DNA of 32,000 nucleotides from Edaphobacter aggregans (GTDB taxonomy: Bacteria > Acidobacteriota > Terriglobia > Terriglobales > Acidobacteriaceae), in NCBI RefSeq assembly GCF_003945235.1, contig NZ_RSDW01000001.1:4200001-4232000 (forward strand). The letters run 5' to 3'. A model generated the notes under the pieces. The model was not told the DNA's origin. It saw only the letters and a list, made by a program, of their open reading frames with translations, and did no database searches. The position numbers were made by a program, and so were the translations under genes. This document shows positions 27,054 to 28,808 of the stretch, in pieces (the first letter of the stretch is position 1; each line of letters starts with the position of its first letter).

Positions 27054-28808
27054 ATGTCTACACAAATTCAATGGTTAGCGCCCTCACCGCTCTGGTCGCC
27101 GCTCACCTCGGGCAGCGACAAGACGGCGTTCCGCTCGCCGTCGCTCCTGCGGTTCTCGAGCGATACGTTCATGACAGACCTGCAAACTCTGTTGGCCCAA
27201 ACTCCGGCTGGCCTGGCGAACCTTGTAGCCCAACCCGAGACCTGGCGCTCCCCGGCAGTGGGTTTAGCAACCACCACGAGCGCGAGTACGTCTTCCGCGG
27301 CATCGAATGCAGATCAGACTCCCACCACACTCAAGTTATTTCAGCCGGTCCACGCCCGGTTTTATCTCGTGGCCGCTTCGCTGGTTTGCCGTTTACCGGG
27401 ACTCCCGGATCATACGGTCAAAGCCAATCAGGGAGAGAAAACCAACTTTGTGTTACGCCGGGTGCAGCCTATATCGACCACGGTCAATCCGGCCGTCACT
27501 CCATTCAATGAGCAAACCTACAGCGAATTTGCATGGATTCCTGGTACCACGCCGCCCGGTTGGGTATTGACGTCCGGCAATAGCATTGCTCCGGGAGAGG
27601 ACAAGCTTCCACTTTTCGCTACCACGTTTGGCAGCAATGGTACGCGCCGCAGAATGCTTGCCGGACTCATCCCCACGGGCCGCAAGCAAACGTATGTAAG
27701 TGGAGTCGCGCTGGCGCAGACCGCGGGACAGGTTGCTCCCCCCACGGCAGACGATCCCCGCGCGATCGACTTTCAACGACAAGTGCTCGATCCATGGGCC
27801 GATCTGGTCGGCTGGGCTACGAACCTCACGGACGTAAATCCGGGACAAGGCTCGCCTCCCTCCGCGGATGTCATCGCTGCCGCGCAGGGCTCAGCTTTTA
27901 TCCTCATTGATTTTGCCAACTATCTCTCCTCCAATCTGCCCGTGGTGTGGACGGCAGTTCAGAATGCGTCGGGGTCAACACTCTCCGGAGCGCAAGCCGC
28001 TCTGTACAACGCCATGAGTGCAACCATGGGCGACGCTATGGATGCCAACACCTATACGCTGGCCCAGGCAATTGCGCTGGCGAAGAACTTCGATAGCGTT
28101 TTTGAAGGCGAAGTTCTGCCCCTGCCCACCGCGCCACCGCAGCCTCTTCCCCCCAGCTATCCAGGTCCGCTTCTGACCGACCTCAGCGATCCGCAATTCG
28201 CGAACTTGATTGGACGTGCGTCAGACCAAGATCCACTCTCGCAGCGCCTGATTCTAACTTTGGTCCAGGCTGCTCTGAATCAAGTGGGTCCTGCGCCTCT
28301 TTCTGCGGTTCCTGCTCCAACCAACAACCCGCAGAACCCGCAGGGTGACGATTGGTACATCGTTCGCTGTGTGTATGACAGGCCGCAATGCGCAGTGCTC
28401 TCTCTGCCGGCGGTCCCGATCATGAGTCCCGCCAGCCAGGTTTTTCAACTCGCTTCGTACTTCGATCCGGACGCGCCGGCGCGCAGGATTCAAGTTGCTT
28501 TGCCGATCGATACCACGGCAGCCACGCTGCGCAAATATGACAAGGGCGTGGCCTTCATGATCTCCGATCAGCTGAACCGCCAGATGCAGCGCGCCACCGG
28601 CCTGCAGGCCCTTATCAACGGCCAGGTGGGTTCGCCGGGCGGATTCAGCCTGGGTATGGTCTGCTCCTTCTCCATTCCTATCATCACCATCTGCGCCATG
28701 ATCGTGCTGTTCATTTTCGTCATTTTGCTGAACATCGTTTTCTTCTGGCTGCCGTTCTTGAAAATATGCTTTCCCTTGCCATCCCTCAGCGCGAAAGGCG
28801 GCGACTAA
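27054..28808 (+). CDS. Unknown eCIS protein (584 aa) with a C-terminal ~45-residue hydrophobic segment
   Basis: The ATG at 27054 (MSTQIQWLAPSPLW..) lies 7 nt after the spike stop. The track start at 26943 overlaps the spike gene. The C-terminus GFSLGMVCSFSIPIITICAMIVLFIFVILLNIVFFWLPFLKICFPLP (nt ~28641-28785) is long enough for a transmembrane hairpin. The stop overlaps the gp25-like start (TAATG). No PAAR motif was seen. Confidence 0.75.
   Translation: MSTQIQWLAPSPLWSPLTSGSDKTAFRSPSLLRFSSDTFMTDLQTLLAQTPAGLANLVAQPETWRSPAVGLATTTSASTSSAASNADQTPTTLKLFQPVHARFYLVAASLVCRLPGLPDHTVKANQGEKTNFVLRRVQPISTTVNPAVTPFNEQTYSEFAWIPGTTPPGWVLTSGNSIAPGEDKLPLFATTFGSNGTRRRMLAGLIPTGRKQTYVSGVALAQTAGQVAPPTADDPRAIDFQRQVLDPWADLVGWATNLTDVNPGQGSPPSADVIAAAQGSAFILIDFANYLSSNLPVVWTAVQNASGSTLSGAQAALYNAMSATMGDAMDANTYTLAQAIALAKNFDSVFEGEVLPLPTAPPQPLPPSYPGPLLTDLSDPQFANLIGRASDQDPLSQRLILTLVQAALNQVGPAPLSAVPAPTNNPQNPQGDDWYIVRCVYDRPQCAVLSLPAVPIMSPASQVFQLASYFDPDAPARRIQVALPIDTTAATLRKYDKGVAFMISDQLNRQMQRATGLQALINGQVGSPGGFSLGMVCSFSIPIITICAMIVLFIFVILLNIVFFWLPFLKICFPLPSLSAKGGD

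Follow-up and report, generated by a model that had tools for sequence, protein, structure and literature searches.

A PAAR-less lineage of contractile injection systems encodes a core protein with a near-invariant hydrophobic tail, a candidate membrane anchor of the spike region

We analysed a 32,000-nucleotide stretch of the Edaphobacter aggregans genome (hereafter the window; RefSeq assembly GCF_003945235.1, contig NZ_RSDW01000001.1, positions 4,200,001 to 4,232,000 of the forward strand) that carries an operon for a contractile injection system (CIS). Between the genes for the spike and for a gp25-like wedge protein lies an unnamed gene at positions 27054-28808, here given the working name gene X, whose 584-aa product (X) ends in a long hydrophobic tail. 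The features that make up and surround this gene are as follows (window coordinates; ORF, open reading frame; AF2, AlphaFold2; pLDDT, predicted local distance difference test score; TM, transmembrane):

25245-26330, plus strand: gp27/GPD-like hub, first half of a split Afp8/VgrG (Pfam Phage_GPD; NCBIfam VgrG_rel, residues 57-348)
26327-27046, plus strand: spike, gp5-like, with a Phage_base_V OB domain and a beta-helix (Pfam PF04717, 3.6e-25)
27008-27043, plus strand: C-terminal tip of the spike, SASYTPGAGNIW, invariant across phyla
27054-28808, plus strand: gene X, 584-aa CIS core protein between spike and gp25 (ORF plus homologue clusters)
27054-28463, plus strand: N-terminal globular alpha/beta region of X, residues 1-470 (AF2 pLDDT mostly 80-98)
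28434-28616, plus strand: strongly conserved segment of X, residues 461-521 (FDPDAPARRIQVALPxDT...LRKYDKGVAFMISDQL; conservation 0.85-0.87)
28617-28649, plus strand: variable, Gly-rich, net-acidic linker, residues 522-532 (family alignment)
28650-28784, plus strand: invariant hydrophobic tail, residues 533-577, predicted to be a single continuous helix (hydropathy, logo of 264 sequences, AF2)
28680-28748, plus strand: predicted TM core, residues 543-565, with a conserved Asn/Asp at 560; next to it comes an interfacial stretch of aromatic, Pro and Lys residues, W565-P576 (insertion energy, AF2)
28785-28805, plus strand: short basic C-terminal end (SLSAKGGD in the window; consensus xLKAKG; family sequences)
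28808-29200, plus strand: gp25-like wedge protein, Cis9 (Pfam GPW_gp25, 4.7e-22; TAATG junction)
29206-31419, plus strand: Baseplate_J/gp6-like protein, Cis11, single copy (Pfam PF04865; TIGR02243, 3.4e-64)
31429-32000, plus strand: start of a Cis12-like (Tail_P2_I) gene that runs past the window end (80% identical to the Cis12-like gene of a related locus, L001, which has a Tail_P2_I match)

A preliminary description of the gene as a 584-aa ORF translationally coupled to its neighbours was confirmed. The ATG of X at 27054 follows the spike stop codon (TAG, 27044-27046) after a gap of 7 nt, and its own stop codon (TAA, 28806-28808) overlaps the gp25 ATG at 28808 in a TAATG junction. An alternative in-frame ATG at 26943 gives a longer ORF that overlaps the spike gene; since all homologues begin at the equivalent of MSTQIQWL, we take 27054 to be the real start. 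Likewise, because of the TAATG overlap with the X stop codon, gp25 was assigned 130 aa rather than the 144-aa ORF from 28766. Tight spacing recurs in relatives, with median gaps of 4 nt from spike to X and 3 nt from X to gp25 (82 related loci).

The operon order was conserved in all loci. Spike, X and gp25 followed one another in 83 of 83 genome or metagenome loci and in 12 of 12 loci from IMG/VR—95 of 95 in total—and Baseplate_J came next after gp25 wherever the contig extended that far. X is a core gene of the whole PAAR-less CIS lineage, neither an accessory gene nor a peculiarity of this locus. A true phage context for X was considered and rejected, as all twelve IMG/VR matches turned out to be CIS operons with the same gene order. 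From the cap gene through Cis12 and the genes just beyond, X was the sole TM-grade protein in seven of eight loci, namely those where ORF calling recovered X.

A word-indexed search returned 392 full-length relatives of X, every one labelled 'hypothetical', and a HMMER profile scan of 1.84 billion representatives yielded at least 1,614 X clusters at 50% identity (E ≤ 1e-3; 784 at E ≤ 1e-30). Relatives are 510-775 aa long and were found in 525 genomes from more than ten phyla, in a scan that used one genome per GTDB species. Carriers belong to the Acidobacteriota, Verrucomicrobiota, Gemmatimonadota, Chloroflexota, Actinomycetota, Bacillota and Myxococcota, and further ones to the Rhodothermota/Bacteroidota, Gammaproteobacteria, Desulfuromonadaceae and Burkholderiales. 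The closest relative in the GTDB scan, at 71% identity, comes from a metagenome-assembled genome of the Acidobacteriaceae; the exact X protein of the window had no record in the contig collection. In cultured carriers, RefSeq and UniProt label X 'hypothetical' or 'uncharacterized'. X gave no match to Pfam, NCBIfam (E ≤ 0.01) or PHROG, and 88 family members scanned against Pfam at E ≤ 1 produced no consistent match and no PAAR.

What the family shares above all is its tail. The motif C-S-[FL]-S-I-P-I-I-T-I-C-A-x-I-x-L-x-[IV]-x-V-x-L-L-[ND]-x-x-F-x-W-x-P-[FY]-[FL]-[KR]-I-C-[FL]-P-x-P was present in all 264 family sequences inspected, and in all of them the first Cys of the motif lies 43-49 residues from the C-terminus. 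The tail consists of three parts: a CSFSIP lead-in, a TM core some 23 residues long that carries a conserved Asn/Asp towards its distal end, and the interfacial stretch with the basic end. Column entropy was 0.6-0.7 bits in the tail versus about 2 bits mid-protein. Measured against the window across 81 related loci, whole X was the least conserved of eleven core proteins (median identity, 35%), whereas its 40-residue tail was 70% identical, as compared to 68% for the spike, the top-conserved whole protein. In a divergent sub-lineage (loci L094-L097), most of the N-terminal domain—in L097, all of it—falls below BLAST recognition, and the L097 tail is still 62% identical to that of the window. 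As the tail is conserved across the family, its hydrophobicity lies far beyond chance.

A free-standing or mobile tail module was also considered. Searching with residues 464-584 gave only short proteins, mostly on short contigs and several of them partial, and the idea was dropped. Two tail-only 'proteins' that could be checked on long contigs (L084 and L085) proved to be frameshift-broken genes in error-rich long-read assemblies. Such C-terminal fragments of broken X genes are one way in which spurious families of small ORFs enter the protein collection.

Several measures point to a membrane segment in the tail. The 19-residue Kyte-Doolittle mean of X peaks at 3.2 (residues 541-559) within a continuous hydrophobic run at about 530-577, the sole strongly hydrophobic stretch of the protein. 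On a Hessa-type scale with literature values, residues 543-565 had an insertion energy of about -5.3 kcal/mol and formed the only negative-energy window, as compared to +6 kcal/mol for residues 561-579 and +6.9 kcal/mol for the best window outside the tail. The N-terminus, MSTQIQWLAPSPLW, is not hydrophobic, and X has no N-terminal signal peptide. A single TM segment near the C-terminus without an N-terminal signal peptide defines tail-anchored proteins, and this is the arrangement predicted for X. A lipoprotein or a sortase-like C-terminal sorting signal (motif, TM helix, basic end) was rejected given the lack of both an N-terminal signal peptide and a lipobox, as Ile or Val precedes the Cys. 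Charges flank the tail asymmetrically: among family sequences, the 20 residues upstream average 2.8 Asp/Glu versus 0.9 Lys/Arg, and the residues past tail position 36 average 2.0 Lys/Arg versus 0.3 Asp/Glu.

We built two AF2 models, one of full-length X on an 88-sequence alignment and one of residues 445-584 together with 70 related C-terminal fragments. The full-length model showed a confident mixed alpha/beta fold over residues 1-470 and a helix at 544-563. The C-terminal model comprised an amphipathic helix at 505-521 (model residues 61-77), which closes the conserved 461-521 segment, then the Gly-rich linker and an unbroken helix at 533-572 with pLDDT 88-96 (94-96 for the TM segment). Confidence of the monomer was low from about residue 461 or 478 up to 542 (pLDDT 43-58 in the 461-521 segment), which makes the 461-521 segment a candidate partner or oligomer interface. 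Inferring from split matches, there is a variable loop at about residues 257-270 where relatives carry extra segments, the longest of about 230 aa; ten long relatives (700-775 aa) had no consistent Pfam domain. No structural relative emerged: the best hit of an X profile search against PDB sequences (E 0.13) was a chance helical match, and a Foldseek comparison of the full model with PDB and BFVD gave best E values of 0.1-0.2 with TM-scores below 0.15.

Taken together, the evidence favours one long tail helix with a predicted TM core at about residues 543-565. The C-terminal membrane-type segment of the preliminary description hence stood up to hydropathy and insertion energy, and the tail was the best-conserved part of X among homologues. 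Its hairpin topology did not: both AF2 runs gave a single helix, and the energy profile leaves room for a single TM segment, with residues 561-579 at +6 kcal/mol.

The same description had pointed to the lack of a PAAR motif in X, and this held for X against Pfam and NCBIfam and for the 88 relatives at E ≤ 1. X has no profile-detectable PAAR repeat (PF05488), and with 584 aa and a 470-residue domain it is not a cone of about 100 aa. Profile scans of the loci found no PAAR gene in the window operon, nor among the genes downstream of Cis12 in L001 and L002. That PAAR normally sits between spike and gp25, as was also stated, is only approximately right: according to Chen et al. 2019 (PMC6899500), the AFP (antifeeding prophage) numbering places the PAAR protein Afp10 after the gp25 protein Afp9.

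The same work sorts extracellular CIS (eCIS) loci into six subtypes and describes IIb as the sole subtype without afp10, with afp8 split into gp27-like and gp5-like ORFs, a single-copy afp11, and afp6, afp12 and afp13 kept (PMC6899500). Lineage II is described there as devoid of a recognisable Afp14 tape measure, and IIb as having two or three domainless 'subtype-specific' genes, whose role 'requires experimental investigations'. In the window, Afp8 is split (GPD ORF 25245-26330; Phage_base_V ORF 26327-27046), afp10 is missing from the locus genes, there is one Baseplate_J and one Tail_P2_I gene, and a 56-aa ORF without a profile match occupies the place of Afp6. By gene signature alone, the locus fits eCIS subtype IIb, most clearly in the split afp8 and the absent afp10, and, again by signature only, X very probably corresponds to one of the genes drawn in grey as 'subtype-specific' in Fig. 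4B of Chen et al.; the text of that paper does not mention a TM segment or assign these genes a role. The survey of Geller et al. 2021 was blind to the X family, as it searched by Pfam domain. The family thus merits an entry in a profile database, being invisible to Pfam-based surveys of this kind. Our literature search found no structural or functional study of the X lineage, or of CIS in its cultured carriers.

The remainder of the operon lies upstream of the hub gene:

16199-16792, plus strand: cap, Pvc16_N (profile match)
16841-17767, plus strand: 308-aa ORF between cap and sheath, no family match, present in nearly all loci reaching that far
17783-19843, plus strand: sheath (profile match)
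19881-20342, plus strand: tube (profile match)
20346-23567, plus strand: second sheath paralogue, 1073 aa (sheath profiles match residues 799-1063 only)
23570-24046, plus strand: second tube protein, Cis5-like (profile match)
24101-25003, plus strand: CIS_tube protein, Cis7-like (profile match)
25049-25219, plus strand: 56-aa ORF between the CIS_tube and hub genes, conserved in many loci, no profile match

From its position, the 56-aa ORF is possibly an Afp6/Cis6-like plug of the spike cavity. The second sheath paralogue is kept in all loci but is much shorter in L094-L097, and its N-terminal ~800 residues had no profile match. Directly upstream of the cap gene lies a 100-aa ORF (15882-16184) without a family match.

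Just ahead of the operon, at 14060-15547, is a gene for a sigma-54-dependent activator (bacterial enhancer-binding protein; Sigma54_activat plus HTH_8), which recalls sigma-54-controlled clusters of type VI secretion systems (T6SS); a strict search for TGGCAC-N5-TTGC sigma-54 promoters in the window and upstream of the CIS operon found no site. A Tn7-like set at 6914-12529 (TnsA-like endonuclease, Mu/TnsB-like transposase, TniB/TnsC-like ATPase, TniQ and a helix-turn-helix protein) sits between an AAA ATPase gene at 5465-6796, possibly Cis15 of the CIS, and the structural operon. Possibly this set was inserted into the CIS locus and divided it; looking for Tn7-like terminal inverted repeats in the window gave nothing convincing.

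Beyond the window end, L001 served as guide. Its Cis12-like protein (986 aa, 14334-17294) combines Tail_P2_I with a Glyco_hydro_42 region (beta-galactosidase family, 6e-10), which may be a carbohydrate-binding or -cleaving module at the baseplate periphery. Two core genes follow (452 aa, L001 17291-18646; 487 aa, 18749-20209), present in 50 of 50 and 49 of 50 loci long enough. Neither of the two L001 genes matched Pfam or PHROG. On visual inspection, both proteins carry the motif N[YF]..G.VL...D...Q.Y...G.GV.CGL.V near the N-terminus and may be paralogues; they could encode fibre, ruler or extra wedge proteins.

The near letter-for-letter identity of the tail over more than ten phyla suggests that this CIS lineage contacts a membrane through its spike region. 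Our favoured reading, held tentatively and at somewhat less than an even chance, is that X is a tail-anchored subunit that links the baseplate centre (probably the spike) with the cytoplasmic membrane of the producing cell. The N-terminal 470-residue domain and the 461-521 segment would dock to the baseplate centre, most likely to the spike, and the amphipathic helix and flexible Gly-rich linker would lead to a tail-anchor helix embedded in that membrane. In this scheme, assembly would take place with the spike facing the membrane, where the machine would stay attached in a T6SS-like or tCIS-like manner instead of being a free particle; when it fires, the spike may pull the tail out with it.

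From several observations we infer that X contacts the spike, inserts into the membrane of its producer and serves there as an anchor. Since CIS are built in the cytoplasm, the tail is very hydrophobic and the operon has no chaperone gene (general profile scans of operon proteins in the window and its relatives gave no match of the Eag/DUF1795 type), the tail would be expected to end up in the membrane of the producer. The fixed place of X between spike and gp25, its status as the sole membrane-type protein and the lack of PAAR suit a structural subunit of the baseplate. The spike ends in SASYTPGAGN[IV]W, a stretch of 12 residues that is invariant across phyla. Because His is absent from this tip, it is unlikely to bind iron at its apex as P2 gpV does; a conserved capping partner is plausible, and an invariant tip is what would be expected if such a partner sat there. 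Precedent exists as well, in that every non-canonical CIS examined so far is membrane-tethered by a lineage-specific protein.

Several points weigh against an anchor in the producer's membrane. In the same seven of eight loci as above, the operon held no co-conserved membrane partner of X. The tail helix, at about 40 residues in the AF2 model, is roughly double what a bilayer needs, and the tail has invariant Cys, Ser, Pro, Thr and Trp as well as an Asn/Asp within its hydrophobic core; a plain anchor needs no such sequence, so the near-invariance of the tail speaks against one. The charges flanking the tail (acidic before it, basic after it) oppose the positive-inside rule and thereby disfavour an N-in/C-out anchor. 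This argument is weak, since tail-anchored proteins often end in basic residues. Carrier phyla include both diderms and monoderms, so a machine firing outward would need to cope with very different envelopes. Finally, the Glyco_hydro_42-like region of the Cis12-like protein could mean binding to an external target.

Some of these observations fit better with X as a membrane-inserting tip that rides the spike in place of PAAR, its helix shielded by the N-terminal domain, the spike or the baseplate. Upon contraction, X would be driven into the target membrane, where it would open or stabilise a passage or cause depolarisation, resembling phage tape-measure or pilot proteins and the prePAAR T6SS effectors with TM domains (TMDs). 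We consider this main rival unlikely on balance, albeit a serious one. X follows the spike in 95 of 95 loci of a lineage without PAAR, and the spike C-terminus is invariant. A tail conserved like the spike, attached to a head that drifts and gains large insertions, would suit a membrane-active peptide, as would a helix of double-bilayer length. An acidic N-flank and a basic C-terminus may reflect entry from outside, with the C-terminus arriving on the negative cytoplasmic side of the target, and the carbohydrate-enzyme-like region of the Cis12-like protein possibly serves target-surface binding. TM segments on ejected components have precedents. N-terminal TMDs, bound by Eag chaperones, occur in thousands of T6SS effectors (PMC12881460), the TM helices of prePAAR effectors travel with the spike (PMC12881460 and PMC8651079), the Streptomyces CIS effectors Sco4256-4258 have one TMD each (PMC10066040), and phage tape-measure proteins carry TM helices (PMC11126660). 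The preliminary description, which called a membrane segment unexpected in such particles, therefore overstated the case. Yet T6SS TMD effectors need Eag, and no chaperone gene was found here that would keep a segment of about -5 kcal/mol from the producer membrane. Nor does the operon hold a candidate immunity protein or a second membrane protein. CIS effectors are normally variable and peripheral, not core and syntenic, and X was in no true phage context among the 12 IMG/VR loci.

Sequence analysis alone cannot separate an anchor from a membrane-inserting tip, and the two might be one. Conceivably, though with a rather low probability in our judgement, X forms an oligomer that acts as a new kind of spike cap, in which the invariant 40-residue hydrophobic helices are bundled. 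The bundle would pin the spike tip in the producer's cytoplasmic membrane, a way of tethering through the spike that is not known to be described for any CIS, and on contraction would travel outward and re-insert in the target membrane to serve penetration or translocation. A single element would in that case be both anchor and warhead.

It is also improbable, and more so than the foregoing possibilities, that the tail never meets lipid and is a buried element of the particle—a helical bundle in the hub or spike cavity or between the wedges—with X as an extra baseplate protein. The first 12 tail residues are near-invariant and the tail length is fixed at 43-49 aa, reminiscent of protein-core packing. 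There was no single conserved helix face (2,527 of 5,000 shuffles reached the observed value, which is not significant), and conservation at tail positions 13-40 followed a weak period-2 pattern (78 of 5,000 shuffles, for a window picked post hoc). The low AF2 confidence at 461-542 would fit folding only in a complex. However, the tail has the hydropathy and insertion energy of a typical true TM helix, values that the rest of X comes nowhere near, the aromatic/Lys belt and basic end are classic features of a membrane interface, and the gene place of a spike-cavity plug is already taken by the 56-aa, possibly Afp6/Cis6-like ORF (PMC8894136).

An assembly, release or holin-like lysis factor, or a tape measure, rather than a stable machine part, is the least probable identity and a very improbable one: X does have a C-terminal TM segment, and some gene must set tube length in a lineage described as devoid of a recognisable Afp14 (PMC6899500), but X, at 510-775 aa with a confident globular domain, is neither a helical ruler nor a small holin, it is fixed in the baseplate block and not in a lysis cassette, and the 308-aa ORF and the 452-aa and 487-aa ORFs of L001 are other ruler candidates. 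Its size and compact mixed alpha/beta fold in the AF2 model led us to reject tape measure and holin. Among the roles first proposed for the gene, anchor and tip accordingly persist as the two leading explanations, whereas an assembly or release factor is poorly supported given the fixed position in 95 of 95 loci, the size and the fold.

The X family has no name, profile or structural relative; the kind of system is known, and the probable role in membrane contact has precedents. X provides one candidate for two puzzles—the missing PAAR and the contact to a membrane—in a lineage of 525 species-representative genomes from soil and aquatic phyla. Should X prove to be an anchor, a lineage so far filed as 'extracellular' CIS would turn out to be bound to a membrane; should it instead be delivered as a tip, it would represent a new membrane-penetration module that could be of use in engineering programmable injection systems. 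Cultured carriers, with the accession of X, are Corallococcus sicarius (WP_120623987.1), Pyxidicoccus caerfyrddinensis (WP_163998219.1), Halochromatium glycolicum (WP_200345916.1) and Roseithermus/Rhodothermaceae RA (ARA94269.1).

How phage-tail-like injection machines engage membranes is under active study, and each newly studied CIS lineage has met membranes via a different lineage-specific protein (Cis13, CisA, Hbor_38620 and SalCis19). In the thylakoid-anchored CIS (tCIS) of Anabaena, the C-terminal TM helix of Cis13 (All3316) anchors the particle, and deleting this helix frees the particles (PMC8894136). Cis13 is bound to the baseplate, as X would be, and has a similar build of head, short helix, flexible linker and C-terminal TM helix, predicted in the case of X. 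[quoted passage not shown] By description, X differs in several ways: its length is three to four times that of Cis13, its gene lies between those for spike and gp25, no similarity to fibre proteins was detected, and its tail is near-invariant over more than ten phyla. Furthermore, the tCIS keeps its PAAR protein (Cis10), which the X lineage does not have.

CisA (Sco4242) of the Streptomyces coelicolor CIS is a membrane protein required for firing and function (PMC12237407). It resembles X in being lineage-specific, single-pass and encoded in the CIS cluster, yet its TM helix lies in mid-protein, between a disordered N-terminal region and a sugar-binding-like domain in the periplasm, and its gene lies downstream of the baseplate genes. 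X, in contrast, is predicted to be tail-anchored, with only about 12-20 residues beyond the membrane. This architecture recalls that of TssL, a C-tail-anchored inner-membrane protein of the T6SS that has a cytoplasmic domain and one C-terminal TM helix and links the machine to the producer's inner membrane. X likewise pairs a cytoplasmic-type domain with a single C-terminal TM helix, though without detected similarity in sequence or fold. TssL acts with TssM and TssJ at the baseplate periphery via TssK, whereas the X operon has no second membrane protein.

PAAR and prePAAR proteins share with X a gene adjoining the spike gene and the association with the spike that is proposed for X. Unlike the prePAAR and TMD effectors, X has its TM segment at the C-terminus and is core rather than variable, and its operon gave no match to PAAR, a toxin domain or DUF1795. 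Hbor_38620 of a haloarchaeal T6SS, with six TM helices and a 150-residue cytoplasmic domain, is a proposed tether to the cytoplasmic membrane (PMC11566945), as is SalCis19 of the Salmonella salamae CIS, which combines three TM helices with a hydrolase domain in the periplasm. Their genes lie at the edge of the cluster and neither protein has a tail anchor, whereas X is mid-operon and predicted to be tail-anchored. Among Cis13, CisA, Hbor_38620 and SalCis19 there is none whose gene lies between those for spike and gp25, nor any long tail-anchored protein of the kind that X appears to be.

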